Below are positions 36,441-60,635 of a stretch of DNA of 64,000 bases, piece by piece. The notes below the pieces were generated by a model. That model saw only the letters and a program-made list of their open reading frames with translations, made no database searches and was not told where the DNA came from. Within the stretch, counting starts at the first letter, position 1; every line of letters begins with the position of its first letter. The translations under genes were made by a program, and so were the position numbers. Source of the DNA: Calothrix sp. NIES-2100 (GTDB lineage: Bacteria; Cyanobacteriota; Cyanobacteriia; Cyanobacteriales; Nostocaceae); assembly GCA_002368195.1 (NCBI GenBank), contig AP018178.1, forward strand, positions 5,273,286 to 5,337,285, written 5' to 3'.

Positions 36441-36589
36441 ATCCCAGTCCTTGCGTCAGTCCTGTCAATAACTAATCATCAGGAAATTTAAAATTTAATT
36501 ATACAAATGAAAGATAAATTCATCAAAAATTTATATTAACGATGAGAATTAGTGCTTTTCAATGTTTTTATCTAATTATGAAAAAAACT

Positions 36590-36602
36590 AGCCAAAATGG
36601 CT
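36590..36602. promoter_or_regulatory. single AGCCAAAATGGCT palindromic motif ~320 nt upstream of RTX-like gene
   Basis: actagccaaaatggctaaattg. Confidence 0.35.
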
Positions 36603-36924
36603 AAATTGTCGTTTAATATGAATTATCCTGTTTATAGGCAAGCATTAACTATAGCTAGCTAATTAATAATTGTAAAGAACAATTATCTATCAAAATTAAA
36701 TCAGACGTACTTCTATCGCCAGTTATTTACTGGGAAAAATCTTATTTTTATGTGATGGGTAAAGCCCAGAGTCAGATTATAAAAAAGGGTGCAGGATAAA
36801 AGTTTATGCACTTATTTATTAATAAATAGGTGAAAAATTAACTGCACATAAATACTTAAGATAGATGGTTCAATAACCATAACTTAAGAATGATGCAGTG
36901 AATAAAGATGAAAAGGACGGTTTC

Positions 36925-38259
36925 ATGACAGCCTTAAACTTAAGCGAAGTCAGATTTAGCAATTACTCTGATGTAGTCAATCCAGGTAGGGCAATATACA
37001 ATAGCCAATACTCATCTGTAGATACATTAGGAGGAGACGATCAAATTATCGGTACTTCCAATGTAAGTGGTGATTTCGCTTTGGTAGCCTATTCCGGAGC
37101 TGCTACCCAATACGGCAAAGCGATCGCCTCTAGCCACTTGAAAGATAAGGCTACTGTTGCTACCTATGGGATTAAAAACGAAGGAACTATCAATACAAAC
37201 TATGGCAACGATATAGTCAGAGGAAAGGCGACAGCTAACATCAGCGCCACTGCTGTGACAGTATCTGAGGCTATAGCTAATGCTCAGAAATCAGATGCTA
37301 TTGCGATCGCCAATGCTTTTGCATCCATTAACGTCAAAGCTACCGCGGACGGCATTGATAACTCCTGGGGTAAGCTTTATACTGGTGATGGAAGTGACTC
37401 TGTAACTGGTAATACTGACGGTTCTGTGAGTGCGGTAGCTGTAGCGATTTTAGATGCCTCAGCCATCGTTGAGGCTATCTGCAAAGCCCCAATGTCTCAA
37501 GGTTTGACAGCTTTCGCCCAAGCAATGGCTACAAGTTTAGCCAAAGGAAGCATCACTGCTACTGGCTTGAAGAATAACAACGGAGTTATTACCACTGGGA
37601 AGGGTGACGATACACTCAGTGCTAGTGCCACTTCGAGTGCTGGTACCTTTGCAAGTAGTGTGAGTTCTACTTTAGCGAGTGCGACTCCCGGTAATCAAGC
37701 TTTAGCGCAAAGTGTCGCATTAGCTAGTGCTCAAGCTTCTGATACCGCGATCGCCATCGACAACTCGCGAGGCTTGATTGATACCGGAATTGGATACGAT
37801 ACTATAGATGCTAATGCTAAGGCGAGTGACAAAGCGATCGCCATTAACAACAGTGGCGGCAAGATTAGTACCGGGGATGGAAACGATACAATTACTGCCA
37901 AAGCTAGTGGCGCTGAAAGTTACGGTATTTTTGGCGGCAATATTGACACAGGTTATGGAAACGATCGCGTCATCGCCTCTAGTTTCGGCGGTGGGGTCAA
38001 CATAGACCTGGGATTAGGTAACGACTTTGTTCAAGGTTTTGGTGACGCTAAATTGGATGGTAGTCTAGGTTGGGATACACTCGACCTGAGCTCTTACAAT
38101 AAAGACAATTTTAAAATCAGTTTTGGTGGTTTGTTTGGCTTTAGCTTGAACAATAGTGTGAGTTTTCAACTAGATGGCGTTACCATGACCACCACTGGTT
38201 TTGACCAATTCAACTTTGCTAATGGCAGTTACAACTTTGCTCAATTAAGGTGGGCTTAG
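36925..38259 (+). CDS. secreted repeat protein with degenerate RTX-like GxGNDxI beta-roll repeats, paralogue 1
   Basis: start moved to ATG after conserved ggacggtttc (MTALNLSEVRF...); Ala/Thr/Ser/Gly-rich; C-terminal GNDTITAKASG...GYGNDRVIAS...GLGNDFVQGFGDAKLDG. Confidence 0.6.
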   Translation: MTALNLSEVRFSNYSDVVNPGRAIYNSQYSSVDTLGGDDQIIGTSNVSGDFALVAYSGAATQYGKAIASSHLKDKATVATYGIKNEGTINTNYGNDIVRGKATANISATAVTVSEAIANAQKSDAIAIANAFASINVKATADGIDNSWGKLYTGDGSDSVTGNTDGSVSAVAVAILDASAIVEAICKAPMSQGLTAFAQAMATSLAKGSITATGLKNNNGVITTGKGDDTLSASATSSAGTFASSVSSTLASATPGNQALAQSVALASAQASDTAIAIDNSRGLIDTGIGYDTIDANAKASDKAIAINNSGGKISTGDGNDTITAKASGAESYGIFGGNIDTGYGNDRVIASSFGGGVNIDLGLGNDFVQGFGDAKLDGSLGWDTLDLSSYNKDNFKISFGGLFGFSLNNSVSFQLDGVTMTTTGFDQFNFANGSYNFAQLRWA

Positions 38260-38407
38260 TGAGTCACACCTAACACTATAATCAGGGACTTCCAACTAAA
38301 AAAATATTCTCTCGCTGTGTGGTCTGATGGCGACAGAGTCAGCAGAGTTTCTCTCAATAATTCGATAATCTAATTTCTCGAATTCCCTAAATTATCCCAC
38401 TTAAATT

Positions 38408-38470
38408 TGTAATTGTTGGCGGTTAATTATGAACAGTCAACTGCCAACAATTACAATGAGATGTTTTTGA
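38408..38470 (+). terminator. rho-independent terminator after paralogue 1
   Basis: tgtaattgttggcgg...ctgccaacaattaca 15-bp stem then atgagatgtttttgatt. Confidence 0.5.
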
Positions 38471-38691
38471 TTGTGAAATCCCTCAAGAAAGCATATGACT
38501 AATTATTTGGTGCATCTGTGCAAAAAGCTTTTCCGCCTCCTAATTCTGTAATGGGTATTAACGCGGTGGGATAGGCGACGGTGTCAAGTTAATCGTGTCA
38601 TTGGGTTGCATGTAGTTAATGATTGTTGATGATGATTATTTCACCATCATTTAAGACTGATGCAGTGAATATATATAGGATGGATGGTTTT

Positions 38692-40011
38692 ATGGCAGCC
38701 TTAAACTTAAGCAAAGTCAGATTTACCCACAAATCTGATGTGGTAAATCCAGGTAAGGAAATATACAATTCCCGATTTTCCTATGTAGATACATCAAAAG
38801 GTGATGATCAAATCATCGGTACTTCCAATGTAACTGGTGATTTCGCTTTAGGAGCTTATGTCAAAGCCGCAGGCAAAAACAGAAATGCGATCGCTTCTGC
38901 TGACTTGAATGGAGAAGCTAGTATTGCTACCTATGGGATTAAAAACGAAGGAGTTATCAATACAAACGATGGCAGCGATATAGTCAGAGGAAGGGCAACA
39001 GCTAACATCACCGCCACCGCAGAAACAGTATCTGTTGCCATAGCCACTGCTCAGAGAACAGATGCGACTGCTTTTGCCAGTGCTTTTGCTGACCTTAACG
39101 TCAAAGCTACTGCTGACGGCATTGATAACTCCTGGGGTGTGCTTTACACTGGTAAAGGCAGTGACAGCGTAAGTGGTGATACTGAAGGTTCTATCAGTGC
39201 GGTAGCCGTAGCGACTTTAGATGCCTCAGCCATCGTCGAGGCTATCTGCAAAGCTCCGGAGTCTGAAGGTCTGACAGCTTTTGCACAAGCAATGGCTATA
39301 AGTTTAGCAGAGGGAACCATTACTGCCACCGGCATTAAGAATTTTGGCGGTATAATTGCTACAGGTAAGGGTGACGATACTCTCACAGCTAGTGCCACTT
39401 CTAGTGCTGGTACATTTTCAGGTATTAATTTTTCGGCTTTCGCCAGTGCGACTCCCAATAATCAAGCGTTAGCTGAGGCTGTCGCCAATGCTAGTGCTAA
39501 GGCTACTGACAAAGCGATCGCCATCGACAACTCTAGAGGCTGGATTGATACCGGGACTGGAGATGATACCATAGAAGCGACTGCTAAGGCTATTGACAAA
39601 GCGATCGCTATTGAAAACTCTAGAGGCTGGATTAGTACTGGGTTTGGAAACGATAGCATTATTGCCAAGGCTACAGGCGCGGACACTTACGGTATTTATG
39701 GCGGTAATATTGATACAGGTAAGGGAAGCGATCGGATCGTTGCCTCGAGTTTCGGAGGTGGGATCAACATAAATTTGGGAGAAGATAACGACTTTATTCA
39801 AGGTTTCGGTAACGCTAGAGTTGATGGTGGTCAAGGTTGGGATACAATCAGCTTTGGCTCCTACAATCAAGACGACTTTCAGATCAGTTTAGGTGCTAAT
39901 AACAATCGTGTGAGTTTTCAGCTAGATGGAATTAGCATGACCACCACTGGATTTGAGCAATTCAACTTTGCTAATGGCAGTTACAGCTTCGATCAATTAA
40001 AGCCGGCTTAA
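38692..40011 (+). CDS. secreted RTX-like repeat protein, paralogue 2
   Basis: MAALNLSKVRFTHKSDVVNPGKEIYNS... collinear with paralogue 1 over the full length; 5' leader (tgatgcagtgaata...gg(a/t)ggttt(c/t)atg) also duplicated. Confidence 0.6.
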   Translation: MAALNLSKVRFTHKSDVVNPGKEIYNSRFSYVDTSKGDDQIIGTSNVTGDFALGAYVKAAGKNRNAIASADLNGEASIATYGIKNEGVINTNDGSDIVRGRATANITATAETVSVAIATAQRTDATAFASAFADLNVKATADGIDNSWGVLYTGKGSDSVSGDTEGSISAVAVATLDASAIVEAICKAPESEGLTAFAQAMAISLAEGTITATGIKNFGGIIATGKGDDTLTASATSSAGTFSGINFSAFASATPNNQALAEAVANASAKATDKAIAIDNSRGWIDTGTGDDTIEATAKAIDKAIAIENSRGWISTGFGNDSIIAKATGADTYGIYGGNIDTGKGSDRIVASSFGGGININLGEDNDFIQGFGNARVDGGQGWDTISFGSYNQDDFQISLGANNNRVSFQLDGISMTTTGFEQFNFANGSYSFDQLKPA

Positions 40012-40051: not shown

Positions 40052-41383
40052 TTAGTTACATAGCTCATGACGAATTACAAATTCTGTCATGAGTTTTAAC
40101 AAATCATGTGCTAATAATCTATCAGCAGCATTTTTAATCACATCAAATGTAATACCTGACTTTTGGGCAATATCCAACAAAGTATGTTGACCATCGGAGA
40201 AATTCAAAACCCACAACATTGCCATTTCATGTAATCTTTTATCTTTGACTTCGTTATTGCCTTCATAAAGACCTCTTTTTCCCAACTGTGGCTCACATTT
40301 GGGATTTTGATTTAAGAAAACTTGATTATTATCAAGGATATGCAATATGGAAAGACATTGAGCAAATGATTCTGCTAGATATTGGGGGTGAATAAAATTT
40401 AAATCATCTGCTGATGTGTGATATTCGGGAAAACTACCATGAGGCGATCGCATTAAGCAACCTACAGCTAAATTAAATCCAGGTGAGCAATACTGGCGTT
40501 CATCATAGCCATAGGGAAAGAAATCGATAATTTCATATTCCTGAGGAGAATTTTTCAAAACATAAGCCGCAACTCGATCAATTTCCGTATTACCTCTACG
40601 GCTTTTTTTATAGGTAAATTTTCCCCCATCTCCTAAACAGGTGAGGACTAGCCCATGCTTAATATTGCTCACTTGAGCTTCATTTACAGCCAACCATGTA
40701 ATTGAGCCGATAGTTCCCGGAATCCAGATAAATCGATAGGAGTATCTTGGGTTACTTTGACTTAAGTATTTAGCTATAAAAGTAGCGATCGCAATTCCCG
40801 AAAGATTATCATTGCACAGTGAAGGATGACAAGCATGGCAAGAAATTAAGACTTCATCTGTGCTTTCTCCAGGGATAAAATATTCACCATAGGTCAGATG
40901 ACCCGGTTCTAATGAAGAATTAATATATACTTCATATTCTTCATCTTTTAGTTGTAAATACTGGTTATGGCTGAGGCAAAAGCCCCAAGCTTCTTTATAA
41001 TATGAAGTGCGATAGGGAATCCAATCAGGATAATCTGGAAGCGTAAACAGATGTGATTTTAATTCTGCAAGAGACAGCTTTTGATGTACAGGTATACTGT
41101 AGTTCAGAACGTGCAGATTTGAATTAGCAAAATCTACAATTTTTTCACCTTGGGAGTTTTTAATATAAGCATCTTTAATATTCCATTCATTAGGAACTGT
41201 CCAATCAAAGACTTCAGTTCCCGTGGGTACTTCATGAATTGATAAAGGAATATATTGCTGAATAATTTTCAGGGTTTCTCGAAAGCCATTACCAGTAATA
41301 CTACGACAGATCGGATATAGCTCAGCGATTAGCTGATAAATTTCCTGAGCAATGTCAGATGATGCGATATTATCAAGGATCAT
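40052..41383 (-). CDS. DUF4910/aminopeptidase-like domain protein (last gene of sugar operon)
   Basis: 443 aa; resemblance to DUF4910 proteins found in polysaccharide/glycan clusters; assignment from memory of family. Confidence 0.5.
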   Translation of the reverse strand: MILDNIASSDIAQEIYQLIAELYPICRSITGNGFRETLKIIQQYIPLSIHEVPTGTEVFDWTVPNEWNIKDAYIKNSQGEKIVDFANSNLHVLNYSIPVHQKLSLAELKSHLFTLPDYPDWIPYRTSYYKEAWGFCLSHNQYLQLKDEEYEVYINSSLEPGHLTYGEYFIPGESTDEVLISCHACHPSLCNDNLSGIAIATFIAKYLSQSNPRYSYRFIWIPGTIGSITWLAVNEAQVSNIKHGLVLTCLGDGGKFTYKKSRRGNTEIDRVAAYVLKNSPQEYEIIDFFPYGYDERQYCSPGFNLAVGCLMRSPHGSFPEYHTSADDLNFIHPQYLAESFAQCLSILHILDNNQVFLNQNPKCEPQLGKRGLYEGNNEVKDKRLHEMAMLWVLNFSDGQHTLLDIAQKSGITFDVIKNAADRLLAHDLLKLMTEFVIRHELCN

Positions 41384-41407: not shown

Positions 41408-42154
41408 TTATAAGGGTTTTGCGAACGGTCTAATGTTAATATCAGTCACTTCAGCAGTACGAGGTAAGCTAAGAGCGTTAATCACTACATCAGCCACATC
41501 ATCTGGTTGCATGAGACGTTCTGGGTGATAAGGTTTACCCTCTATTTCGTGAATTCTGGCTTGTAGAGGAGTAGCAGTCCGGCCAGGAAACACGTTAATA
41601 ACCCGTATTTGCTCAACATTCACTTCTTCGCGGAGACTATCAGCGATCGCCTTGAGGGCGTGTTGGGTAGCAGCATATTGTCCCAAATTCGCCCTAGGAC
41701 TGTTAATTACACTGGAGTTGATAAACAAAATTTGTCCGCTACTAGATAAAAGCATCGGGAGTAAAGTTTGTGTCAACAGATAAGGTGCACGAACATTAAC
41801 CCGATAAAGCAAGTCTAACTCTTGAACAGAACTCGTTTGCAATGTCCCCATTGAGAACATACCTGCACTTTGGATAAGCAAGTCAATCTGCTCAAAATCT
41901 CGCTCCAGATTTGTTTTTAGTTTGCGGATATCTTCATCGATCGTCAAGTCGATTGCATAGCAAACAACTTTAGGGGAAGTTTCAAGAGCGATCGCGGCTA
42001 CTGTTTGCAGGGTTTCCAAGTTGCGTCCTAGCAAACAAAGTTTTACACCTTGCGCAGCCAAACCTAAAGCGATCGCTCTCCCGATTCCACTACTAGCCCC
42101 TGTGAGAACTGCAACCTGACCGATTAAAGTTTCCATTTTGAGAGTACTATTCAA
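41408..42154 (-). CDS. short-chain dehydrogenase/reductase (candidate sugar ketoreductase)
   Basis: TGASSGIGRA Rossmann motif; SDR catalytic region with YAATQHALK-type YxxxK; 248 aa. Confidence 0.8.
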   Translation of the reverse strand: MNSTLKMETLIGQVAVLTGASSGIGRAIALGLAAQGVKLCLLGRNLETLQTVAAIALETSPKVVCYAIDLTIDEDIRKLKTNLERDFEQIDLLIQSAGMFSMGTLQTSSVQELDLLYRVNVRAPYLLTQTLLPMLLSSSGQILFINSSVINSPRANLGQYAATQHALKAIADSLREEVNVEQIRVINVFPGRTATPLQARIHEIEGKPYHPERLMQPDDVADVVINALSLPRTAEVTDINIRPFAKPL

Positions 42155-42229: not shown

Positions 42230-42787
42230 TTACGTTACCCTAGGTGTGACAATTTTTGTCCGCTCAAATAAACTCCAAGTTTTATCTTTTTCCGATATTT
42301 CACTCACTCTTAGAGGCCATTCAATATCAAAAGCTGGGTCATCATAACGATATCCATCGGCATATTCTGGAGCATAGAAATCACCCATTTGATACATCAC
42401 CTCTGTGTCATCGCTAAGAGTTTGAAAACCATGAGCAAATCTATCCGGGATATAAAGCGCCCGCCGATTGTCAGCAGTTAACTCTACACCAATGTGAGAT
42501 AAATAAGTCGGAGATTCTGGGCGTAAATCAATAATCACATCATAAATTGCACCCTGGATGCAACGCACTAACTTTGTTTCCTGGGAAGGAGGCTTTTGAT
42601 AATGCATCCCCCGCAATGTTCCTTTTTTATTATTAAAAGATAAATTGCATTGAGCGATTGTAGATTTTAATCCATAAGCTGCAAATTCATTGATGCAAAA
42701 AGTCCGAGCGAAAAAACCCCGTTCATCCTGGCGCAACTCTAAATCAATAATAAATGCCCCTTTTAGCTTAGTTTCAGTGAATAACAT
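42230..42787 (-). CDS. NDP-4-keto-6-deoxyhexose 3,5-epimerase (RmlC-like cupin)
   Basis: 185 aa; conserved GxLRGMHYQ region (KGTLRGMHYQ) and overall RmlC pattern. Confidence 0.8.
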   Translation of the reverse strand: MLFTETKLKGAFIIDLELRQDERGFFARTFCINEFAAYGLKSTIAQCNLSFNNKKGTLRGMHYQKPPSQETKLVRCIQGAIYDVIIDLRPESPTYLSHIGVELTADNRRALYIPDRFAHGFQTLSDDTEVMYQMGDFYAPEYADGYRYDDPAFDIEWPLRVSEISEKDKTWSLFERTKIVTPRVT

Positions 42788-42803: not shown

Positions 42804-43457
42804 TTAAAAAAACATTTTTCGGCAGTAAAAGGCTTCAGCGTAATTATTAGGTGAATTAGATTCTATTCCCCGAATTCTCAGGATTGAACGAAAAGTATCT
42901 TCTGTAAACCATTGCTTATGATTCTGGGTGAGAAATGAATCTAGAATATAGTTGATTTTTTGCCGACAAATTGTGTCATCTAAATGCACAAAGAAATTAG
43001 GAATCCCCAAGTCACCATCGTACTTGGGGATTTCATATTCCAGAATTAAATGATTTCTAAATGTGTTCCAAGTCAAATTGGAAATTAAACGATGATCTTG
43101 ATGGCGATCGTCTCGGTGATGAGTCAAAATAATATCTGGGTCAAATTCCTGCTTCAACTCCTCAAAGCATTCTTTTACCTCTATTCCGTGGAAAGGTAAA
43201 AAGCCATCTCGAAAATTTTTAATGATGACTTTCTTTGTGTTTACCTCTTTTAAAAAAAGATTGGCGCTTGCAATTGCTTCCTGCTTTCTCTCCTCGTTGG
43301 AACTAAATACTACCCAATATACAATGACATTTTTGTAATTTTCAATCAGTTTTAAGACTGTCCCTCCACAGCCGATTTCAATATCATCGCAATGAGCGCC
43401 TAGACAGAGAATCTTATATTGCGATTCATCTGTCTTATTCAAGCTAAGCTTGATCAT
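42804..43457 (-). CDS. PIG-L/LmbE family deacetylase
   Basis: N-terminal AHCDDIEIGCGG metal-binding motif; 217 aa; 4-nt overlap with upstream gene. Confidence 0.75.
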   Translation of the reverse strand: MIKLSLNKTDESQYKILCLGAHCDDIEIGCGGTVLKLIENYKNVIVYWVVFSSNEERKQEAIASANLFLKEVNTKKVIIKNFRDGFLPFHGIEVKECFEELKQEFDPDIILTHHRDDRHQDHRLISNLTWNTFRNHLILEYEIPKYDGDLGIPNFFVHLDDTICRQKINYILDSFLTQNHKQWFTEDTFRSILRIRGIESNSPNNYAEAFYCRKMFF

Positions 43458-44251
43458 ACATGAGATGCCTCTAGATTTTTATCTCTCCATACTTCCCAAG
43501 GTCTTACACCCTGAGCATACATATCATCCAACTGTTGCTTTTCTTTAAAGGTATCCATAACCCCAAAAAAGCCAGTATATTTATAAGCAATCAGTTCCTG
43601 TTGATTAATCAGTCTTTGAAAAGGTTCTAGAACAAGTTCTTCCCCATAATTAATATACTTGAAAATATCTTTTTTGAAGATAAAATATCCCCCATTAATC
43701 CAGATATCACGCTGCTTCACATCCTGGAGGTCTTGCACCAAACCATTATCATCTATATCTACTAAATGAAAACTTTGGCTTGGTCTCACACACAGAAAAC
43801 TACCTATTTTATCACGCCGATAAAAATTATCAATGTATGTAGGTAAATGCAAATTTGTCAAGCCGTCACTGTAATTAGCGAGAAATACTTCTTCGCCATC
43901 AAGATATTCTTCAATTGCCTTAAACCTTTGTCCAATATTAGCAGTTAAACCAGTATCCACAAAAGTGATATTCCAATCTTGGATATCATGGTTAAACAGT
44001 TGAATTTTGCTGCCACTAGAAAGAGTAAAGTTATTAGAAAGCCATTCATTATAATTTAAGAAATAGCTTTTTATTAGATCAGCTTTATAACCCAAACACA
44101 AGATAAAATCCTTATGTCCATAATGGGCATAGTATTTCATCACATGCCATAAAATCGGTCTATATCCGATATTAACCATCGGCTTAGGAATGGATTCGGA
44201 ATAATCTCTCATCCGCGTACCTAAACCACCACAAAATAGTACTACTTTCAT
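43454..44251 (-). CDS. rfbF: glucose-1-phosphate cytidylyltransferase
   Basis: MKVVLFCGGLGTRMRDYSESIPKPMVNIGYRPILWHVMKYYAHYGHKDFILCLGYK matches the RfbF N-terminus closely. Confidence 0.85.
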   Translation of the reverse strand: MKVVLFCGGLGTRMRDYSESIPKPMVNIGYRPILWHVMKYYAHYGHKDFILCLGYKADLIKSYFLNYNEWLSNNFTLSSGSKIQLFNHDIQDWNITFVDTGLTANIGQRFKAIEEYLDGEEVFLANYSDGLTNLHLPTYIDNFYRRDKIGSFLCVRPSQSFHLVDIDDNGLVQDLQDVKQRDIWINGGYFIFKKDIFKYINYGEELVLEPFQRLINQQELIAYKYTGFFGVMDTFKEKQQLDDMYAQGVRPWEVWRDKNLEASHV

Positions 44252-50700: not shown

Positions 50701-50743
50701 AGTCAAATTGGCTAGAAATCAAAATTTTCTAGCCAATTTGGCT
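50701..50743. promoter_or_regulatory. paired AG(T/C)CAAATTGGCT palindromic motifs, 30-nt centre-to-centre, ~200 nt upstream of sugar/GT operon
   Basis: agtcaaattggctagaaatcaaaattttctagccaatttggct; also forms a 15-nt-arm inverted repeat. Confidence 0.45.
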
Positions 50744-51160: not shown

Positions 51161-52177
51161 TACTCTTCAACTAGCCCATTCACCGATCAACAGTAGCTGT
51201 TGATATCGATGGAGCGGTGTTTTTTCGTCGTCTAAATCAGCATTTAGGGCGATCGCTTCGCTGCGATCGGCAACAAAAGTCTGTCAATCACCTATTGCCA
51301 ACAAAACAGTGATGATTGCCTGTCGCTCAAATTTCTTCTATTGAAATCGAACTAAAACCGGATTGTGAACAACTACTAGAAGTAGAGCTTGAGTAACTAA
51401 TCGAACTTGAATTTACGTAAATACTTGCATTTCCCTCAGAGGAAATACTGACAGAAATGCTCTGACTGACCTCACTTTGATCGTCGCCAGATGCCTTGAC
51501 AAAACTTTTAACCTCGGCTATAGTCTTTCCATCAGGTGAGACTATCCGTTTATTTACAACTCGATAGCGATTCACGATCGTCCTACCTACTTGTTGTTTA
51601 TTTGGATAAGATAAGCAAATCAGAGGAAGGATAAGTCAGGGGATAATGCGCGTTACAATTATCACCTGAATTGATCTGGCTCTGATGGCTCGCAACAACA
51701 AAATAAAAGTTTTTTCTGAGATTTGTTAACTTTGGGCAATTAATTTTTTAATTGCCCATGTTCATTATATAGCATAATTGGTGATTAACGATCATATTTT
51801 TGACTGTGTAATTCATAAAAATATCTCATCTATTGATAGATAGTAATTTGATTTTTTATGGTTTTAAATAGATAAATGCCAAAGTTATGGCTAATAACTA
51901 GCAAATTTTCTTGTCCAGATTTAAGCGATGGTTTTTTAGTTTTTGAAGCGATACAAAATCTGTCTTTGCCTTGGAAACTTTCCCATTAGTAAAGTAACCT
52001 GAATTCAAAGATTTATGTATTAACCTGACCCCCAATCCCCAGTATTAAAAATTCTTCCGGATCTTCCCCTCAACCCCGCCACTGCAAATGAGGGGTAGTG
52101 AAAATCGTAATTTTTCTGATTCTTCCCTCTCCTTGTAGGAGAGGGGGATTAGGTGGGTGAGGTTTTTGTAATACAAG

Positions 52178-54652
52178 TTAAAGTATTGCGCCTGCTTTTG
52201 TTTCCTCTAACTTCTGCTGACTTTCATCAATATCTTCTAAAATCCTGTGAACTTCCCTATGGTTGGGATTCAGTTCTAGCGCTTGTTGAAAATAAACTTT
52301 GGCAGTTTGTAAATCACCTGCCTTTTTTCGACTAAGACCTAATTTATAATTTAATTCTGCATAATGAGCTTGTTGGTCTTGTGAGAGTTTACCTTGGGTA
52401 TAAAGCGCATTACCTAAATTTACATCCGCTTCAACGCAGTTGGGCTGTATTTGTAAAGCTTTTTCATAGCAATTTATCGCTTCTTCCCATTTGCCTTGTT
52501 GTTGCAAAGCATAACCCAGGTTGTTGTAAATTGAAACCGCATCTGGTCGCAGAGCAATGGCTTTTCTGTAAGCGTGTTCAGCTTTTGGTAACTGTCCCTG
52601 TAGTTGACACAGATTTCCTAAAGTAAACCAAATTTTGACAGAATCAGGTTGAACTTGTGAAGCTGTACTGAGGAATTTCTCAGCTGCTTGCAATTCTCCC
52701 CTTTGCTGTGCAATTACACCTAGACCATATAAAGCATCAGGATGGTCTGGCTGGATTGACAAAACCTGACGGTAAGCTTGTTCGGCTGGTTCTAAGTGAT
52801 TTTCTCGATGTTCTTGGATTGCTAGTCGCAGGGTTTCCGCAACGCTATTTATAGCAGATATCCTGGGTTTGCCGACAGCATTCAGCAAAAATTCCTCTAA
52901 GGCTCGAATTGGCTCCAAGTCGCCATATAATTTATGCTTGTTCTGGGAAATTAACTCGGATATGTAGTGACGATATTCAGAATCTCTCCCTAGACGGATG
53001 GCAAATTGTACATATTCCTCCTTGCTAGAAGCAATTGTTTCCTCGATACCCATCATCTTCAAGATTGCCAGAGTATGTCGTCCCCTCATCAATTCCCCTG
53101 GTAGAGTGATAACGGGAACGTTATAGGCAATACATTCCAAGGTAGAATTACATCCAGACCAACCGATGCTATCCAGAAAGACATCTGCTATGGCAGCTGT
53201 GCCAGCAAACCTTCTGCTACTCATGCCCGGTAAAAATATACAGTAGTCTTGATAATTCAGCCCAAATTCCTGAAAAATTTGCTGTAAACGCTGACGAAAT
53301 ACTTCAGTAATATATTCACTCTCATCATGTTGGATAAATACAAACTTACAATTGCTTAACTCTTTAGCAATTTTGGGAAAAACGTCATCATGTTGAGGTA
53401 AATATTTAAATAAGGATTGGCAACACCATAACATAATTTCATTATCGGCAATGCCAATATCTTTTTTGCTCACAGCCTCATATTCAGTTGCTAGAGGCGT
53501 GTAATGAATAGATAGATTTGGTAATCTGACTAATTTTTCTGTATAGTGTTCTTGAGCATTTTCTGGTTCCATTAATTCACTGCTCAAGTAATAATCAATG
53601 GTTGGTAAACCACTGGTTTGAGGATGTCCCCAAGAAGTGATTTGAATAGGAGCTAGCTTTAAACAACCTAGTCTTACTGTCATATGATCCATCCCAAATT
53701 CCGGGAAAATCAGGATGTGTAAATTGTCTTTGTAAATTAGCTCAGCCCATTCTTCAAATGACAGTGACCCTTGAGTAAATTTGTCAAATTCTTTTGCGGC
53801 TCTTGTAGTGTTATGATCTCGCTTGGAGTTAGTGTGATATGCAAATAATTCAAATTCACTCCTATCCAAGTTTTCGATCCAACCCTTGATGGGAATTTTC
53901 CAATTAGAATGACTGTAAAAAAATTTGGAAACTAAACCAATACGAACTTTTTGATTTGGCTTTAAATCTGGCAGAGGAATAGCTTGACTCCATTGGGGAT
54001 AACAATTCGACGTAATATGAACAAGCATTTCCCCATAAGTTTTCTGCAAAGTCCGGTCATTTAAGCATTGATAAGCCAGATAAAAAGGCTGTAGTGAACC
54101 TACTGTATCTACAGATTTTTCTAACTCTTGTTTGTCAGCTATTTGATAATTTTGAGCTAATTCTTCTAGGTAATTTTGATAGTTATTTCGCTGAGTATTT
54201 ATTTCTGTATAACTGGAGTAAATAATTGGCAATTGAGCAATGAGAAGTCCAAATTTTGCTCTAGATAAATCAGGTTGAAACTTTAAGGCTTGCTGATATG
54301 CTTCTATAGCAGCCTCTAGGTCACCTAAGTCATAATATGTATTTCCTAAGTTCCAATAAGCATATACAAAATCAGGCATAATTTTTAATGCCTGTTGGAA
54401 GCATTTTTTAGCTGACTCTAAGTCGCGTTGACCCGTCAATGCACAGCCCAAGTTATGATGAGCCTCAGCATAGTCAGGTCTGATTTTTAATGACTGTTGG
54501 AAAGATGCTGCTGCTGCTTCTAGCTTACCTTCTTTTAGAAATATATTCCCTAAATTGAAATGTTCTTCAGCATTCAAATTGGTGTCTGTTACAGGAGAAT
54601 TCGATTGCAAAGATAGAGCCTCTGATGACATAACAACCTCATAAATCTGCAC
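52178..54652 (-). CDS. TPR-repeat protein with central O-GlcNAc-transferase-like (GT41/SPY-like) glycosyltransferase domain
   Basis: N- and C-terminal TPR blocks; central region (RIGLVSKFFYSHSNWKIP...APIQITSWGHPQTSGLPTIDYYLSS...) resembles GT41; C-terminal TPR block near-identical to N-termini of the two TPR-GT2 proteins. Confidence 0.8.
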   Translation of the reverse strand: MQIYEVVMSSEALSLQSNSPVTDTNLNAEEHFNLGNIFLKEGKLEAAAASFQQSLKIRPDYAEAHHNLGCALTGQRDLESAKKCFQQALKIMPDFVYAYWNLGNTYYDLGDLEAAIEAYQQALKFQPDLSRAKFGLLIAQLPIIYSSYTEINTQRNNYQNYLEELAQNYQIADKQELEKSVDTVGSLQPFYLAYQCLNDRTLQKTYGEMLVHITSNCYPQWSQAIPLPDLKPNQKVRIGLVSKFFYSHSNWKIPIKGWIENLDRSEFELFAYHTNSKRDHNTTRAAKEFDKFTQGSLSFEEWAELIYKDNLHILIFPEFGMDHMTVRLGCLKLAPIQITSWGHPQTSGLPTIDYYLSSELMEPENAQEHYTEKLVRLPNLSIHYTPLATEYEAVSKKDIGIADNEIMLWCCQSLFKYLPQHDDVFPKIAKELSNCKFVFIQHDESEYITEVFRQRLQQIFQEFGLNYQDYCIFLPGMSSRRFAGTAAIADVFLDSIGWSGCNSTLECIAYNVPVITLPGELMRGRHTLAILKMMGIEETIASSKEEYVQFAIRLGRDSEYRHYISELISQNKHKLYGDLEPIRALEEFLLNAVGKPRISAINSVAETLRLAIQEHRENHLEPAEQAYRQVLSIQPDHPDALYGLGVIAQQRGELQAAEKFLSTASQVQPDSVKIWFTLGNLCQLQGQLPKAEHAYRKAIALRPDAVSIYNNLGYALQQQGKWEEAINCYEKALQIQPNCVEADVNLGNALYTQGKLSQDQQAHYAELNYKLGLSRKKAGDLQTAKVYFQQALELNPNHREVHRILEDIDESQQKLEETKAGAIL

Positions 54653-54928: not shown

Positions 54929-55747
54929 TTAAGTGATGATTTGTATCGAGAGTTGATTAGGAGCGACTCCCTGCACAAACCCAATTAAGTCTAAACCACC
55001 AGCCGCAGTAGGCGATGCAGCAGAAATAAACGTATCAGCACCATTATAACCAAATGAATACGTCGCCGCGCCACTTAACTGGATAATATCCTTACCAACC
55101 TCGTAGTCAAAAATAAACGCATAGTCTGCGTCCTCCCCACCTAGATAAAACGTCCCACCAGCATTACCCAGAACGAATGTATCGGCAGCGTTATCGGGGG
55201 ACAAGCCTACTATATTACCATCGTTGAGAACACCACTACCAACCAAGATATCAAACCCACCCGTCGGAGCAGCAGCGGAAGCTCCCACTATGGTGTCACT
55301 CCCCGCTCCTCCAAATAACTGGTCATCACCATCACCGCCAGTAAGGCTGTCATTGCCGCTATCCCCATAGAGGACGTCATTACCTACAGTGGCATCGAGT
55401 AGATCATTGCCTGCACCCCCATCCAAGTAATCATCGCCTAGACCGCCAAAAAGTTTGTCATCGCCGTTATCCCCAAAGAGTCTATCATCCCCAAAACCCC
55501 CTACCATGAAGTCATTACCATCGCCCCCACGGAGGGTATCATTACCGAAATCTCCGGTGAGGTTGTCATTGCCTTTACCCCCAGAGATGCTGTCATTGCC
55601 GTCACCCCCTAAAATGTTATCATTACCACCTCCACCTATGATGGTGTCATTTCCACTAAGACCTAAGATACTATAGTTAACAGTAATACTGTCTCCCCCT
55701 GGTACAGTGATTTTATCGTTGCCATTGGTTCCTAATTTAGAAGGCAT
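54929..55747 (-). CDS. hemolysin-type calcium-binding (RTX) repeat protein
   Basis: tandem GGxGNDxLxG nonapeptides ([42 protein letters not shown]...). Confidence 0.85.
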
Positions 55748-56085: not shown

Positions 56086-56385
56086 TTACTTTCCGCTGTA
56101 AGCAGTAGAGTTAACTAAAGCGTTAGCAGCACCAGCTGTGGTTTGAGTAACAAATACGATTTGAGCAATGTTCTTTTGTCCACCAGAAGCATCAGCAGAA
56201 CCAGATACTTCAGCCAAGTTACCAGCTAAACCACCGGTGTTCACAGCAAAGCTCTTGTAGGTGGTTTCGACAATGGTTTGCTTAACGTTTTTGTTGAGGT
56301 TAAAGGCTACGTTGGTAGCGAATCCGTCGCCACCAATTACTTCTTCAGATGCATCTTCAAAGTAGTTTAGGTCGTTGATAATCAT
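56086..56385 (-). CDS. small secreted peptide precursor with double-glycine-type leader (bacteriocin-like), copy A
   Basis: start set at MIINDLNYFEDASEEVIGG (strong AGGAGA RBS 9 nt upstream; ORF track begins further upstream); 99 aa; Gly/Ala/Thr/Asn-rich core. Confidence 0.6.
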   Translation of the reverse strand: MIINDLNYFEDASEEVIGGDGFATNVAFNLNKNVKQTIVETTYKSFAVNTGGLAGNLAEVSGSADASGGQKNIAQIVFVTQTTAGAANALVNSTAYSGK

Positions 56386-56465: not shown

Positions 56466-56508
56466 AGCCAAATTGGCTGGATTTTAGAATTTCCTAGCCA
56501 ATTTGGCT
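56466..56508. promoter_or_regulatory. paired AGCCAA(A/T)TTGGCT motifs, 30-nt spacing, ~80-120 nt upstream of copy A
   Basis: tagccaaattggctggattttagaatttcctagccaatttggctga. Confidence 0.45.
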
Positions 56509-56740: not shown

Positions 56741-56983
56741 TATTTCTTAAAAGCGTTATATCAATTGTATGTATATTGACAGAATAAAAGCAGAGGGCAG
56801 GAGGCAGGTATACTGCTATCTATGAATTAGGCTATAAAAAAGTTACTTACATGTTATTACCAACCTTTCTTTAACTAAATAATTAATTGGTGAAAGCTTT
56901 TAAAAGCTTTCACCAATTTTTATCAAATTTTGAAAAGTTGGCGATTTAAGTTCCAATTTCGACCATGTCGAACTACCGGAAAC

Positions 56984-57283
56984 TTACTTTCCGCTGTAAG
57001 AAGTAGAGTTAACTAAAGCGTTAGCTGAATTGGCTGTGGTTTGAGTAACAAATACGATTTGAGCGATGTTCTTTTGTCCGCCAGAAGCATCAGCAGAACC
57101 AGATACTTCAGCCAAGTTACCAGCTAAACCGCCTGTGTTCACAGCAAAGCTCTTGTAGGTGGTTTCGACAATGGTTTGCTTAACGTTTTTGTTGAGGTTA
57201 AAGGCTACGTTGGTAGCGAATCCGTCGCCACCAATTACTTCTTCAGATGCATCTTCAAAGTAGTTTAGGTCGTTAATAATCAT
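56984..57283 (-). CDS. small secreted peptide precursor with double-glycine-type leader, copy B
   Basis: 99 aa; differs from copy A at a few core positions (TTANSANALVNSTSYSGK versus TTAGAANALVNSTAYSGK). Confidence 0.6.
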   Translation of the reverse strand: MIINDLNYFEDASEEVIGGDGFATNVAFNLNKNVKQTIVETTYKSFAVNTGGLAGNLAEVSGSADASGGQKNIAQIVFVTQTTANSANALVNSTSYSGK

Positions 57284-57362: not shown

Positions 57363-57405
57363 AGCCAATTTGGCTGGATTTTAGAATTTTCTAGCCAATT
57401 TGGCT
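57363..57405. promoter_or_regulatory. paired AGCCAATTTGGCT motifs, 30-nt spacing, upstream of copy B
   Basis: atagccaatttggctggattttagaattttctagccaatttggctg. Confidence 0.45.
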
Positions 57406-57893: not shown

Positions 57894-58160
57894 TTATTTA
57901 GATGCATAAGCAAGCGCTTGCGAAGAAGCAACAGCTATATAAGGAACTTTTTTTAAAGGTGATGTTATCACTTGCGATCCAGCTCGTGCATAAGTGGTTT
58001 TACCTTCGGCTGAGGCAAAACCACTACCATTTGAAAAGGCACTGAATCGCGATGCTTCACTTAAACTCGAAGATGATGAGACTGCTGAAACACCACCGCT
58101 TAAGATGATGCTGTTTTCCGCAGTTATAGAGGCTAAATATTCTAAATCAGCAATTTTCAT
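57894..58160 (-). CDS. small secreted peptide precursor with GG-type leader (divergent, Ser/Ala-rich core)
   Basis: start set at MKIADLEYLASITAENSIILSGG (ttggagaatttaaaagcATG RBS); 88 aa. Confidence 0.5.
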   Translation of the reverse strand: MKIADLEYLASITAENSIILSGGVSAVSSSSSLSEASRFSAFSNGSGFASAEGKTTYARAGSQVITSPLKKVPYIAVASSQALAYASK

Positions 58161-58413
58161 GCTTTTAAATTCTCCAATTAATGGTTGTAACAATATTAGA
58201 CAATTGTAAATTTTAATAATTTTATTTAGAATATAAATTTATCTATCCTAAATAAAAAGCATCTATCTTTTGATAGATTTTTACCCGGGAAAGGAAAAAT
58301 GATTATGCAGAATGTAAATTATCAAGATTTAATTAAAAAAATCTTTAGAAACCTGTGTTTTTTCTTTTGAATTAAACCCGAGAAAATTTTAACTAATTTC
58401 ATTAGAGATGAGG

Positions 58414-58426
58414 AGCCAATTTGGCT
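58414..58426. promoter_or_regulatory. single AGCCAATTTGGCT motif upstream of 57894..58160
   Basis: gaggagccaatttggcttc. Confidence 0.35.
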
Positions 58427-58679
58427 TCATTTTTATAGATAAATATCTCAGTCCTCAGCAAAATGCCCACAGTAAAGGCGAATGGTGAATTGTAAAGAGT
58501 TGGTAAAGTTAATTACAACCACAAATAGGGGTAGCATCAGCCGTAAACATCCCTTTCTGGAAAAGTTTTCATCCAAGTACAGTGGGCGCGTCAATAAACC
58601 ACCCATTAACAATTTCTGAAACAACAAGCGAAAATTTAACAGGACTTACGCACAACACAACGAAAGTAGCGTTTATAAG

Positions 58680-58760
58680 TAGGTAGACACAATTATTTAG
58701 AAGACGCATTTCGACTTCTCCCAAGGGGAGACGCTACGCGAACGCTCAATGCTCGATAGC
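58680..58760. repeat. partial copy 3 of dispersed structured repeat
   Basis: gggagacgctacgcgaacgctc matches cores of copies at 9727 and 36395. Confidence 0.35.
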
Positions 58761-59055
58761 TTGACAAGAAGAGGGTTGAGAGGAGTCGAAACCCGGTAAT
58801 GCGTTCGTTAGGTTTAATTTAGTCCCCTTAGGGAAGGCGAAGCCCAAGGGGAATAGGAACCTCTTCAAGGGAAAGAGTTTTGCTACCCAGATATAAGGGC
58901 TTCGCCCAACGCAGTACGCATATACATGAATGAAAGCTACGCAAAAATCAGGTTTTTGGTCACATTTTGCGTAAGTTCTACCTAATTAGGAATTACGTAG
59001 ATGCAGGTATAGCCTGAGCAGCTTCTTTTAGGCTAGTGCGGAGGCTGACAGGGTA

Positions 59056-59391
59056 TTAAGAATTACCTACTCCTCGCAAAGGTATTAGTACCTTGGGTTT
59101 TAATATTGATGATGCAACTGCGAGAAGTTTACTAATACCTTTAACCGCAGATGGAGTAACTAACGGTATCGCCTTAGCCCAATTTAAACGCCAATTCCCG
59201 ATCGCTGTACCAATTCCTGGGCTGGAGCTAGCAGTCTTGCCTGTATTATAGTTACTCAAACTCATAGCACTTACAGAAATACTACGGTTCTGGTTCAGAC
59301 TAGCAGTGACATTGAGATCGCCACCCCCGATAACAGTGTCATCGTCAGAAATAGGCTCTAAATGGTCTAAATCGTAAATCTTCATGCTCAT
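59056..59391 (-). CDS. small secreted peptide precursor with GG-type leader (divergent)
   Basis: MSMKIYDLDHLEPISDDDTVIGGG leader; aattggagaattta 5' leader shared with 57894 gene; exact start (59391 versus 59385) uncertain. Confidence 0.5.
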   Translation of the reverse strand: MSMKIYDLDHLEPISDDDTVIGGGDLNVTASLNQNRSISVSAMSLSNYNTGKTASSSPGIGTAIGNWRLNWAKAIPLVTPSAVKGISKLLAVASSILKPKVLIPLRGVGNS

Positions 59392-59778
59392 TAAATTCTC
59401 CAATTTATGCATTGTTGAGCATCTATATGAATTCTGACTTTAATATTTATAAATTCAGGAACTACCTAGTTGGTTCAAAAAATGATGGTAGAGGCACCAA
59501 ACTATCGCTGCAAGGTAATTAAAAAATTAGACAATATTCAGCTAACTGGATGTTTATTTTTTTCCGGCTCTTATGCAGCAAGCTTGATGACAAACTTGCT
59601 AGTTAAAAAAGCAGATTCAAGCCTACTTATTTTTCTTTTTAAGTAAAAAATTTACGCCATATTTAAGGAAAATTTCCAGTTTTAAATTTTGATATGGTTT
59701 GTCAACATTTCGCGATTTTACTTTTATCTAAGTTCATCAAACCTTTAAGAGTCTACCTAATTTAATCGAAAAATTAAA

Positions 59779-59791
59779 GCCATTTTGGCTA
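59779..59791. promoter_or_regulatory. single AGCCATTTTGGCT motif upstream of 59056 gene
   Basis: aaagccattttggctaa. Confidence 0.3.
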
Positions 59792-60635
59792 ATTTTTGGA
59801 AAAAATAGCAGGTGCATCAATCAAGCGCTAATTAACCGCTTATTTACAATATCTGATAATATATGTGACAATATAAGAATTAAGAATTAAGAATTATACG
59901 TTAGCGTTAATATTACATAGCAGTGGAAATCAAGCTACTAGCTAAAATTGGTAAAAAACTCCGATTTGTGGGTGGAGTTTTTGTCAGCGATCGCGGTAAA
60001 GCACTATGCTAAACCCCGAAAACACAGACGCGCAGCGCAGTGCAGTAAAACGTGTGTACCATAAGTATTCTTTCTCTTGACTTTTGCCTTATTGCACTAA
60101 TAGTCCATCACATTAATTATTATGGATACGTAGTTCGCAGGGGAGGGTGCTGAAAATAAGCACTCAAGTCCTGACTACAAAATTATTTACTTAAGTGTTC
60201 TGATTTGCGATCGCCTACTAGCGATCGCCCCACTAAGCTACTTTTTTATACTGTATACCAACTTGGATTACGGTCTACTTTGTCTTAATAAACACTACTT
60301 ATGATGAGTAGATTGTAACTAGTGTCAGTTGATAAAGTGTCACTCACCACATTCCTGAAATTGTTCTAGAAGATATATCCTTAGTTAGTGCAAGGAGTGA
60401 TACCACTTCACGACATGTTTGTTACAAGTAATTCTCGTAATGCTCCTCCTACAAGGATTGTTGCGGATTTCAGATGTTGCATCAAACAAGTGGATTGGTA
60501 TAAAGTTATACGGAGGAGCGCTTGGGTGAGCAAAACTCTCAAGCGCTTTTTCGTGTATAAATAAAAAAATTTTCCTCTTAGTGGTAATGAGTAAGTTTTT
60601 AAAAGCACATAGCTGGGAAGGGTCTAATTGTAGAC

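Follow-up and report, generated by a model that had tools for sequence, protein, structure and literature searches.

A conserved cyanobacterial gene module joining double-glycine leader peptides, TPR-glycosyltransferases and a candidate branched-sugar cassette in Calothrix sp. NIES-2100

We analyzed a 64,000-nucleotide stretch of the Calothrix sp. NIES-2100 genome (contig AP018178.1; the whole stretch is called the window below, and positions are counted from its first letter), in which a first-pass annotation, made from the letters and their open reading frames (ORFs), had proposed a glycosylated secreted peptide or protein system. Classification of the window ORFs by Pfam and NCBIfam scans, with bit scores compared to the family cut-offs, delimits a putative cargo-and-modification locus at 36.5-59.8 kb, with housekeeping genes (EF-Ts, RecG and an NDH-1/ChpY CO2-uptake cluster) upstream and the TopA gene as the downstream flank. 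The locus consists of four small leader-peptide genes, an RTX protein and two RTX-like paralogues, three TPR-bearing glycosyltransferases and a set of sugar-nucleotide genes (Table 1), the GT2, GT41 and HemolysinCabind families being matched as the first-pass annotation had anticipated. Most of the parts in that gene list are present, while two genes had been overlooked: a Ser-rich 82-aa ORF and the DUF4910/M28-like gene that terminates a nine-gene operon. This operon runs on the minus strand from 50502 down to 40052 with intergenic gaps of -4 to 97 nt, in the order TPR-GT2b, TPR-GT2a, NAD epimerase/dehydratase, 3-C-methyltransferase, RfbF-like cytidylyltransferase, PIG-L, RmlC, short-chain dehydrogenase/reductase (SDR) and DUF4910/M28-like protein. 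Rfam and tRNA scans of the whole window returned no match. As detailed below, the module to which these genes belong is real, conserved and largely uncharacterized.

Table 1. Genes and promoter elements of the locus, in order of position in the window.
Feature	Position	Strand	Remarks
Single palindrome AGCCAAAATGGCT	36590-36602		Upstream of the 453-aa gene; 1 mismatch to consensus
453-aa RTX-like protein	36898-38259	+	Irregularly spaced GxGxD motifs
462-aa paralogue of the 453-aa protein	38623-40011	+	Weak NF046115 Ca-repeat match, 6e-4
DUF4910/DUF2172/HTH_47 protein, M28 aminopeptidase-like	40052-41383	-	Last gene of operon; DUF4910 4e-121; 3k9t 'putative peptidase' 5e-166
SDR	41408-42154	-	adh_short 3e-40
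RmlC-type nucleoside diphosphate (NDP)-4-keto-sugar 3,5-epimerase	42230-42787	-	dTDP_sugar_isom 3e-64; TIGR01221 173.6 bits, cut-off 155.75
PIG-L/LmbE-family de-N-acetylase	42804-43457	-	PIG-L 6e-16; start overlaps upstream gene's stop by 4 nt
Glucose-1-phosphate cytidylyltransferase-like, RfbF-like	43454-44251	-	RfbF 1tzf 1.6e-52, full length; GGLGTR motif
NDP-sugar 3-C-methyltransferase (TylC3/TcaB9 type)	44349-45593	-	Methyltransf_14 3e-69; Methyltransf_13 1e-23
NAD-dependent epimerase/dehydratase-family enzyme	45630-46658	-	Best structure 6vo6 'putative sugar-nucleotide epimerase/dehydratase', 3e-28
TPR-GT2 glycosyltransferase a	46670-48541	-	N-terminal shared TPR module and GT-A domain with HDDD
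TPR-GT2 glycosyltransferase b	48583-50502	-	First gene of nine-gene operon
Double palindrome, 30-bp spacing	50701-50743		GT2/sugar operon promoter; layout as in promoters of class-A peptide genes (pepA; …TATACAA…TTAGCTA)
Ser-rich 82-aa ORF	51327-51575	-	GTG start; no GG leader; conserved across loci
TPR-GT41-TPR glycosyltransferase, OGT/SPINDLY-like	52178-54652	-	C-terminal TPR is the shared module
272-aa RTX (Ca-binding beta-roll) protein	54929-55747	-	HemolysinCabind 1.8e-30; nine GGxGxD motifs
Class-A leader peptide gene, copy 1	56086-56385	-	99 aa: 19-aa leader MIINDLNYFEDASEEVIGG and 80-aa core; identical to NIES2100_43090
Double palindrome, copy-1 class-A promoter	56466-56508		Proximal copy abuts weak -35 (TATACA-17-TATATT), centre near -42
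Class-A leader peptide gene, copy 2	56984-57283	-	Same leader MIINDLNYFEDASEEVIGG; 15-bp-stem terminator after gene, 56885-56918
Double palindrome, copy-2 class-A promoter	57363-57405		Pair 30 bp apart
Leader peptide gene, '…SGG / FSAFSxGxS' class	57894-58160	-	MKIADLEYLASITAENSIILSGG and 65-aa Ser-rich core
Single palindrome	58414-58426		254 nt upstream of the '…SGG / FSAFSxGxS' peptide gene
Fourth leader peptide gene	59056-59385	-	Leader MKIYDLDHLEPISDDDTVIGGG; orphan core
Single palindrome AGCCAAAATGGCT	59778-59790		Upstream of fourth peptide gene

The four small genes, for which trimmed starts are given in Table 1, all lie on the minus strand and encode the double-glycine leaders (MxIxDLxYLE…GG) that had been noticed at first reading. 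These leaders are 19-23 aa long and terminate in GG, like the leaders of PCAT substrates. Across 112 sequences, positions M1, I2, I3, D5, L6, Y8, L9, E10, G18 and G19 each show at least 90% conservation or no variation at all, and the precursors, which measure ~95-105 aa, share a nearly invariant N-terminal leader of the form MIISDLNYLE-x3-5-EEVxGG. Two of the genes, referred to here as class A, arose as a tandem duplication with a period of 898 bp and are 96% identical to each other; up to four identical tandem copies are found elsewhere. The class-A core (~80 aa) is kept across cyanobacterial orders at ~30% identity, with the motif K…GNxAxAE…AxAxGNNTxAE…T.T…S…SAT. Cores are of low complexity, rich in Ala, Gly, Ser, Thr and Asn, and Cys is absent from 58 of 61 class-A cores as well as from all cores in the window (65-87 aa). 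Based on profile searches, the class-A family comprises 244 clusters at the 90% identity level and, at 50%, 651 representatives (a single-sequence word-index search gave 5 clusters only), with 215 of the 651 reaching E <=1e-10 and nearly all of them being 85-115 aa long and matched over their full length. The named members are, without exception, called 'hypothetical protein' and have no Pfam family, and the named sources are all cyanobacteria. Consistently, Pfam and NCBIfam scans of the four small proteins of the window gave no match, and an AlphaFold2 model of the class-A peptide, built on a 112-sequence alignment, showed no confident monomer fold (pLDDT 51.5, pTM 0.26). Peptides resembling the '…SGG / FSAFSxGxS' class were found in some of the orthologous loci described below (L029, L035, L046, L049 and L044/L053), while the core of the fourth peptide had no homologue in the 85 loci searched and may be degenerate.

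Two further observations concern the surroundings of the peptide genes. Between the third and fourth of them, ~600 bp of non-coding DNA (58450-59050) contain GC-richer inverted segments (e.g., gggcgaagccc…gggcttcgcc) that returned nothing from Rfam and may represent a small mobile element or a structured RNA. Downstream of the GT41 gene, no fewer than 14 loci encode proteins of ~145 aa with a Nif11-type leader (…EEELVGAxGG, followed by QPMYGIVI-type repeats), for instance at 5709-6167 of L009, in four copies at 17821-20217 of L013, and in L016, L023 and L024; none is present in the window.

One of the two functions originally suggested for the locus was that of a glycocin-like bacteriocin, that is, of antimicrobial peptides glycosylated by a GT2 enzyme and exported through a C39-ABC transporter, and the locus does resemble glycocin loci such as that of sublancin (SunA/SunS/SunT) in outline, with leader peptide, GT2 enzyme and, in its orthologues, a C39 ABC exporter. 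Glycocins are roughly 40 aa long and carry two nested disulfides and an S- or O-linked hexose or N-acetylhexosamine (HexNAc), whereas the present locus encodes ~80-aa Cys-free cores, three TPR-bearing transferases and a dedicated branched-sugar pathway. The double-glycine leaders, the active-type C39 ABC exporter of the orthologous loci, the presence of GT2 enzymes and the fact that such clusters have been catalogued as putative bacteriocin clusters (PMC3140520) are all in agreement with a bacteriocin. However, nested disulfides and S-glycosylation are impossible in Cys-free cores of this kind, no immunity or thiol-disulfide oxidoreductase gene was recognized, and the GT2 domain has no close solved relative, its matches being weak and generic. 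Further, up to four identical copies stand in tandem behind strong promoters, and the core is conserved across orders, unlike that of fast-evolving toxins. Hence, the bacteriocin suggestion is poorly supported, and we attach a low probability to it.

All three TPR-glycosyltransferases that had been annotated were confirmed, with scores of 74.8 and 95.4 bits for the two GT2 domains (cut-off 23.3) and 89.3 bits for Glyco_transf_41 (cut-off 25), and no membrane segment is predicted in any of them. The catalytic domains of GT2a and GT2b are 55% identical to each other and both retain the DDD motif; in a sequence search of the Protein Data Bank they matched generic GT-A enzymes alone, at 2e-9 or weaker; chondroitin synthase, GalT1, PglI, WcaA and EpsD are the best, if weak, matches of these domains. 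In the third enzyme, TPR blocks flank the GT41 catalytic domain on both sides, and the catalytic part aligns end to end, over ~330 residues, with Thermobaculum TtOGT (5djs, 1e-27) and plant SPINDLY (5e-25); HMW1C-like 'adhesin' structures match much more weakly (8e-11). Its FYSHSNW and SLFKYLP motifs align with …F(F)THS… and …NLAKITP… of SPINDLY, and we take the His and Lys in them to be catalytic, by comparison with OGT and SPINDLY. The characterized GT41 relatives that the structure search returned are all protein glycosyltransferases. N-glycosylation of the HMW1C/NGT type, which the GNNT found in many cores had brought into consideration, was rejected on the grounds that the window peptide contains no such sequon and that the GT41 domain is nearer to OGT/SPINDLY than to HMW1C (1e-27 vs. 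8e-11).

The three transferases are further linked by a TPR module of ~178 residues, which occupies the N-terminal ~180 residues of both GT2 enzymes and residues ~600-780 of the GT41 enzyme, aligned in register at 55-58% identity (E 1e-70 to 1e-75), while all other TPR-to-TPR matches among the three proteins are out of register and only 27-40% identical. The same module is found elsewhere, with a median identity of 60% in 17 same-locus pairs, and across loci the C-terminal GT41 copy is as similar to the N-terminal GT2 copies (57.6%) as the latter are to one another. That is, the TPR unit is equally conserved whatever the catalytic domain attached to it, which argues for constraint and, therefore, for a common binding partner. 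These sequence relationships suggest a common docking target for the three transferases.

Alternatively, the product of the transferases and sugar genes could be a free glycan (a sheath polysaccharide or exopolysaccharide, a lipopolysaccharide (LPS) side chain or a glycolipid, for example), which would be co-regulated and co-located with the secreted proteins without being attached to them. Polysaccharide and lipid-linked-oligosaccharide GT-A enzymes are indeed the best, if weak, matches of the GT2 domains, a cytidylyltransferase together with RmlC and a C-methyltransferase is typical of O-antigen and antibiotic sugar pathways, and the TPR-GT2 genes are absent from 11 of the 32 well-flanked loci considered below. 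Yet the transferases lack membrane segments, and among the ORFs and family matches between 36.5 and 60 kb we recognized no Wzx/Wzy, ABC-2, flippase, polymerase, priming transferase or polysaccharide exporter. In addition, the protein-modifying nature of the GT41 relatives, the sharing of the GT41 TPR module by the GT2 enzymes, which argues for a common protein partner, and a peptide-type promoter in front of the GT2/sugar operon (below) speak against a free glycan. We consider this alternative unlikely, though more probable than the others discussed here.

The first-pass annotation counted three secreted RTX proteins. The product of 54929-55747 is a true RTX protein, while the 453- and 462-aa paralogues are merely RTX-like: they have six loose, irregular GxGxD motifs and 0-1 canonical ones (zero canonical GGxGxD in the 453-aa protein), and thus do not show an RTX repeat. 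Neither paralogue has a Pfam match at E up to 0.01, and the 453-aa protein, which probably starts at the Met of MTALNLSEVRF near 36925, has no NCBIfam match either. Genes of the RTX type (272-aa or ~460-aa) adjoin GT41 in 56 of 69 cyanobacterial loci, homologues of the 453-aa protein doing so in 9 of the 69. The overlooked Ser-rich 82-aa ORF consists of a conserved N-terminal part, VVNKRIVSPDGKTIAEVKSFVKASGDDQSEVSQSISV, and a poly-Ser tail. Homologues are present in 11 or more other loci, spread over several orders; they lie directly 3' of GT41 in five of them (L008, L020, L029, L046 and L049) and within a few kb of GT41 in the remainder. The product of the ORF is a candidate O-glycosylation substrate.

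As for the sugar genes, what had been described as a CDP-methyl-deoxysugar pathway (CDP, cytidine diphosphate) stands with respect to the genes themselves and the C-methyl part. The 3-C-methyltransferase matches the D-mycarose 3-C-methyltransferase 4rv9 (6e-80) and TcaB9 (8e-64), both over the full length, with the Zn-binding N-domain, the S-adenosylmethionine domain and the C-terminal Methyltransf_14 all present. No CDP-glucose 4,6-dehydratase is recognizable in the cassette, the epimerase/dehydratase-family enzyme scoring 25.7 bits against TIGR02622, whose cut-off is 278, and therefore the 'deoxy' in the original name is unsupported. This enzyme is instead a candidate C4 oxidase or dehydratase that would give a 4-keto intermediate, and the SDR is, by inferred role, a candidate 4-ketoreductase. 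The RfbF-like enzyme makes CDP activation of the sugar plausible; its TIGR02623 score is 214 bits, under the cut-off of 300. Relatives of the PIG-L enzyme (MshB, BshB, PIG-L and the teicoplanin deacetylases) act on GlcNAc-glycosides, not on nucleotide sugars. The DUF4910 gene also follows the sugar genes in L045, and a search of the literature for DUF4910, C-methyltransferase and PIG-L cassettes found nothing relevant. Overall, the cassette is similar to the TylC3/MtmC/TcaB9 pathways (mycarose, tetronitrose) in its full-length methyltransferase homology and in having a 3,5-epimerase and a reductase. Characterized 3-C-methyl branched-sugar pathways use dTDP-sugars, however, whereas the present one would use CDP, lacks a clear 4,6-dehydratase and lies in a protein-secretion rather than an antibiotic or LPS context.

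To assess how widely these genes occur together, one genome per species was scanned with a GT41 alignment, which yielded 78 distinct loci, 69 of them cyanobacterial; neighbors were labelled by tblastn with the proteins of the window and of the reference locus L001, and by a regular expression for the leader. Among the 32 cyanobacterial loci in which GT41 is flanked on either side by at least 8 kb, a leader peptide and HlyD are each found nearby in 31, an RTX gene in 30, a cNMP-C39-ABC exporter (cNMP, cyclic nucleotide) in 29, a SurA-like rotamase in 29, a TPR-GT2 in 21 and the 3-C-methyltransferase in 12, the last count being held down by the 10-kb flank; where the flank is long enough, the sugar genes are there as well. 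Next to its peptide and RTX genes the module has one TPR-GT41 gene and one or two TPR-GT2 genes. It is present in ~60 of the cyanobacterial species scanned, including members of Nostoc, Anabaena, Calothrix, Rivularia, Scytonema, Brasilonema, Stigonema, Tolypothrix and Richelia and also of the non-heterocystous Symploca, Dapis, Okeania, Microseira, Pleurocapsa, Xenococcaceae and Aphanothece. None of these neighbors accompanies the eight GT41 matches outside the cyanobacteria (24-47% identity). In the three metagenomic lineages that carry the closest relatives of the peptide (51-78% identity), the gene order is peptide, RTX, TPR-GT41 throughout; two of the three run on into TPR-GT2, one of these two with the epimerase, and two of the three have genes for a 1023-aa cNMP-binding/C39/ABC protein, for an HlyD-type protein and for a rotamase directly upstream of the peptide. 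The C39 domain of the L001 exporter retains the catalytic Cys (ADCGSAC) and His (HFIV), as in PCAT1 and ComA.

These results answer the synteny question that had been posed beforehand, in that the glycosyltransferase homologues adjoin peptide, RTX and exporter genes and not LPS or exopolysaccharide clusters. The claim that the parts form one system is strongly supported by this cross-order synteny and by a common promoter type, and we regard a single functional module as highly probable. A chance juxtaposition of unrelated genes in one genome might be argued from the absence of the exporter from the window and from the two RTX-like paralogues on the opposite strand, but it is already contradicted by the synteny in dozens of species across orders, together with the shared promoter element and the shared TPR module, and we hold it to be extremely improbable.

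The leader also connects the module to HetC/HetP-type genes, since its KIxDLxYLE…GG motif is seen inside true HetP proteins next to C39-ABC genes, and tandem acidic precursors of 103-106 aa occur beside a HetP-like gene in Microcoleus PCC 7420 (PMC3140520). In our set of loci, Symploca, Aphanothece and others have a gene for a true HetP-family protein within the module, a short way upstream of GT41, and these proteins contain KIxDLKYxEV…GG internally (L033, 9384-9833; L036, 9352-9801; L061, 9297-9734; L067; L022), which ties the leader type to HetC/HetP-like pairs. Together with the cNMP-binding domain of the exporter, this could mean that the exported small proteins are morphogens or differentiation regulators acting in development or cell-to-cell signalling. 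Against such a role, the module also occurs in non-heterocystous taxa (Dapis, Symploca, Microseira, Pleurocapsa, Xenococcaceae and Aphanothece), the tandem copies, consensus promoters and low-complexity ~80-aa cores suggest bulk material, and RTX partners and a dedicated sugar pathway would be unusual for a signal; we judge a signalling function improbable.

The operator-like motif that the first-pass annotation reported is real. Matches to the palindrome AGCCAAWWTGGCT with up to 2 mismatches number 24 in the window, compared to 3.2 expected, a count that none of 100 shuffles reached, and all exact or 1-mismatch sites fall inside the locus, in front of the peptide genes, of the operon and of one RTX-like gene. 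Pairs spaced 30 bp apart precede both class-A genes and the GT2/sugar operon, while single sites precede the other two peptide genes and the 453-aa gene; at the last of these (36590-36602), the spacing to the -10 box is unlike that at the peptide promoters. The GT2/sugar operon thereby carries a copy of the peptide promoter. At class-A genes of Dapis, Pleurocapsa, Symploca and Xenococcaceae the palindrome is positioned ~100 nt before the ATG and 23 nt before TATATT, and variants of it are found in Aphanothece and Microseira. From a centre near -42 we infer the geometry of an activator site, and a palindrome-binding activator probably co-regulates the remaining parts of the module in NIES-2100. 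The palindrome could not be assigned to a known regulator and is not known to match the NtcA, CRP or SigF-type motifs, and unbiased ORF clustering of the loci revealed no regulator gene that recurs near the module. The class-A genes have individual terminators.

In most Nostocales orthologues the palindrome is absent, and the class-A genes have a consensus TTGACTTTTT-N17-TATATT promoter followed by an inverted repeat at the transcript start. This repeat (L013-L077 and others) extends from ~5 to 45 nt past the -10 box (e.g., ~5985-6015 in L002) and combines a conserved loop, AAAAACAA, with co-varying stems (GTGAGC/GCTCAC, GTAAGC/GCTTAC and GTAGCCAAC/GTTGGTTAC). Compensatory changes were seen in four of the six stem pairs, and the repeat is probably a 5'-untranslated-region hairpin or an operator.

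On balance, we favor, with moderate confidence, the interpretation that the region represents the cargo-and-modification half of a conserved cyanobacterial secretion module, and we hold it somewhat probable that the transferases modify the secreted proteins in the following way. The three soluble transferases would each bind, by means of their shared ~178-residue TPR module, a feature that the cargo proteins have in common, for which the conserved leader is the obvious candidate, and the Ser/Thr/Asn-rich cores, perhaps along with the Ser-rich 82-aa protein and the RTX proteins, would be glycosylated in the cytoplasm. The OGT/SPINDLY-like GT41 enzyme would probably start an O-linked glycan, the PIG-L enzyme may de-N-acetylate a transferred HexNAc, and the GT2 enzymes would probably extend the glycan with a CDP-activated 3-C-methyl hexose, made by the cassette through cytidylyl activation, C4 oxidation, C3 methylation, 3,5-epimerization and 4-reduction. 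The C39-ABC/HlyD exporter would then cut after GG and secrete the product, the NIES-2100 exporter genes having presumably become separated from the locus. The tandem copies, the strong or activator-type promoters, the individual terminators, the Cys-free low-complexity cores, the RTX partners and the absence of a confident fold suggest an extracellular glycoprotein, structural or belonging to the matrix, that is made in abundance and works with Ca-binding RTX partners, and not an antibiotic or a signal. Accordingly, of the two functions originally put forward, that of a surface glycoprotein fits better than a glycocin, while it remains an interpretation. A bolder version, which we offer tentatively and consider rather less probable, is that the TPR module on the three catalytic domains reads the MIISDLNYLE leader in the manner of a RiPP recognition element (RiPP, a peptide made by the ribosome and modified afterwards), directing the stepwise assembly of an O-glycan with a CDP-derived 3-C-methyl hexose on a ~80-residue type I cargo, and that the exported glycoproteins polymerize together with the RTX proteins into a sheath, fibril or matrix.

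Several points weigh against this interpretation. The C39-ABC and HlyD exporter, the search for which the first-pass annotation had recommended, flanks the orthologous loci and keeps its Cys and His there, but no exporter was found in the 64-kb window or in the ~8 kb past its end, which hold a GGDEF/EAL gene, an IS605 tnpB and an MscS gene, nor was a NIES-2100 copy identified among the 120 best relatives of the L001 exporter. RTX proteins usually leave the cell by means of C-terminal signals and ABC transporters without an active C39 domain, and how those of the module relate to the C39 exporter is a weak point of the scheme. The target of the TPR module is a guess, since the exporter, the rotamase or the other transferases would serve equally well as partners, and the weak, generic resemblance of the GT2 domains to polysaccharide and oligosaccharide GT-A enzymes makes a non-protein acceptor possible. 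Glycosylation and secretion of the cargo, as well as the donor sugar and its nucleotide, are deduced from gene content, with a cytidylyltransferase below its family cut-off and no clear 4,6-dehydratase. Finally, the notion of a structural polymer derives from composition and gene dosage, given the poor AlphaFold2 model.

Several known systems share elements of the favored scheme. Oscillin and SwmA are glycosylated extracellular RTX-type Ca-binding proteins of motile cyanobacteria, oscillin being a single large protein of ~650 aa, whereas the RTX proteins here are ~270 and ~460 aa long and accompanied by small leader peptides. Caulobacter FlmG with flagellin, and HMW1C with HMW1, are examples of the cytoplasmic glycosylation of secreted or appendage proteins. 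Among cyanobacteria, a TPR-GT41 that acts on a neighboring secreted protein has precedents in Ogt of Synechococcus elongatus, which is encoded next to pilA and needed for the glycosylation of PilA, and in OgtA of N. punctiforme (PMC9306852). As in the Ogt-PilA case, a soluble enzyme with TPRs and a homologous GT41 domain is encoded here beside a presumed secreted substrate, on which it would act before export. The GT41 enzyme of the window differs in having TPRs on both sides and a C-terminal block common to two GT2 enzymes, and the presumed substrates would take a C39-ABC type I route, in contrast to the pili, flagella and two-partner secretion of the Ogt-PilA, FlmG and HMW1C systems. The nearest functional analogue is that of EbfG1-4 and PteB in Synechococcus elongatus PCC 7942, where tandem-encoded GG-motif proteins are exported by a C39-ABC transporter with HlyD and serve as components of the biofilm matrix, not as antibiotics (PMC4997328; PMC9981879). 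This likeness is one of architecture; no glycosyltransferase or sugar genes are reported with ebfG, and the leader type and the rotamase may differ.

The exporter, rotamase and precursor half of the module was catalogued in 2011 by Wang, Fewer and Sivonen in their group I/II 'bacteriocin' clusters (PMC3140520), and the orthologous loci are like these clusters in holding a long-type cNMP/CAP_ED-C39-ABC exporter, HlyD, a SurA-like rotamase and KIxDLxYLE…GG precursors. Unlike the 2011 cluster definition, the loci described here include TPR-GT41, TPR-GT2, RTX and sugar-pathway genes, and the window is without the exporter half; neither 'glycosyl' nor 'TPR' occurs in the text of that study (PMC3140520). 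A survey of subsection V cyanobacteria mentions glycosyltransferases for nonribosomal peptide synthetase/polyketide synthase and hopanoid clusters only, not for peptide clusters (PMC4558948). In the literature we searched on double-glycine and C39 systems, glycosyltransferases, RTX and TPR proteins, oscillin and glycocins in cyanobacteria, which was not exhaustive, no description of this combination of genes was found, and a 2024 paper on phage resistance in ISME J proved unrelated to the module. The statement made at first reading, that no characterized locus combines these parts, thus agrees with the literature searched, with the exporter and peptide half already on record.

Cyanobacterial double-glycine 'bacteriocin' clusters are abundant, and their products and roles are almost wholly unexplained, EbfG/PteB being the one studied case and a matrix system. 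Our results tie one large class of these clusters, physically and regulatorily, to three protein-type glycosyltransferases and a branched-sugar pathway. If the favored scheme is correct, it would represent a new bacterial protein-glycosylation route coupled to type I/PCAT export and a new use for a CDP-activated C-methyl sugar, and it would provide a candidate explanation, at the molecular level, for the glycoproteins of sheath, surface fibrils or matrix in filamentous cyanobacteria. The defined leader, the shared TPR docking module, the conserved activator site and the predicted mass adducts offer handles for further work.

A few features in and around the locus are worth recording in their own right. 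In L010 (16423-19175) and ~9 other Rivularia or Calothrix loci, a microviridin-like set, consisting of a PFFARYL…KYPSD precursor and ATP-grasp ligases, lies downstream, and a radical-SAM gene recurs in 12 loci; both look like neighbors rather than parts of the module. Between the locus and TopA, at 60640-60760 of the window, short tandem repeats are found, GGGCATT heptamers followed by TCTCCCTTG-like units, at which an independent Logan assembly contig stops; these repeats may mark a rearrangement that split off the exporter genes. Just past the window, the IS605-family OrfB/TnpB gene is located at 2630-3799 of L086, where a 1086-aa PAS/GAF/GGDEF/EAL protein is also encoded. The NDH-1 CO2-uptake cluster (20645-27211, plus strand; NdhF3-like, NdhD3-like and ChpXY/CupA) is unusual in being interleaved with genes for a beta-carbonic anhydrase (22674-23393) and for a CDP-alcohol phosphatidyltransferase (25237-25863). 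Lastly, three adjacent genes at 10738-15804 on the plus strand may form a signalling unit; they encode a 732-aa OmpA/BON protein, a small GTPase of 174 aa that is Ras/Roc-like, and a PAS histidine kinase of the hybrid type that has receiver and Hpt domains.

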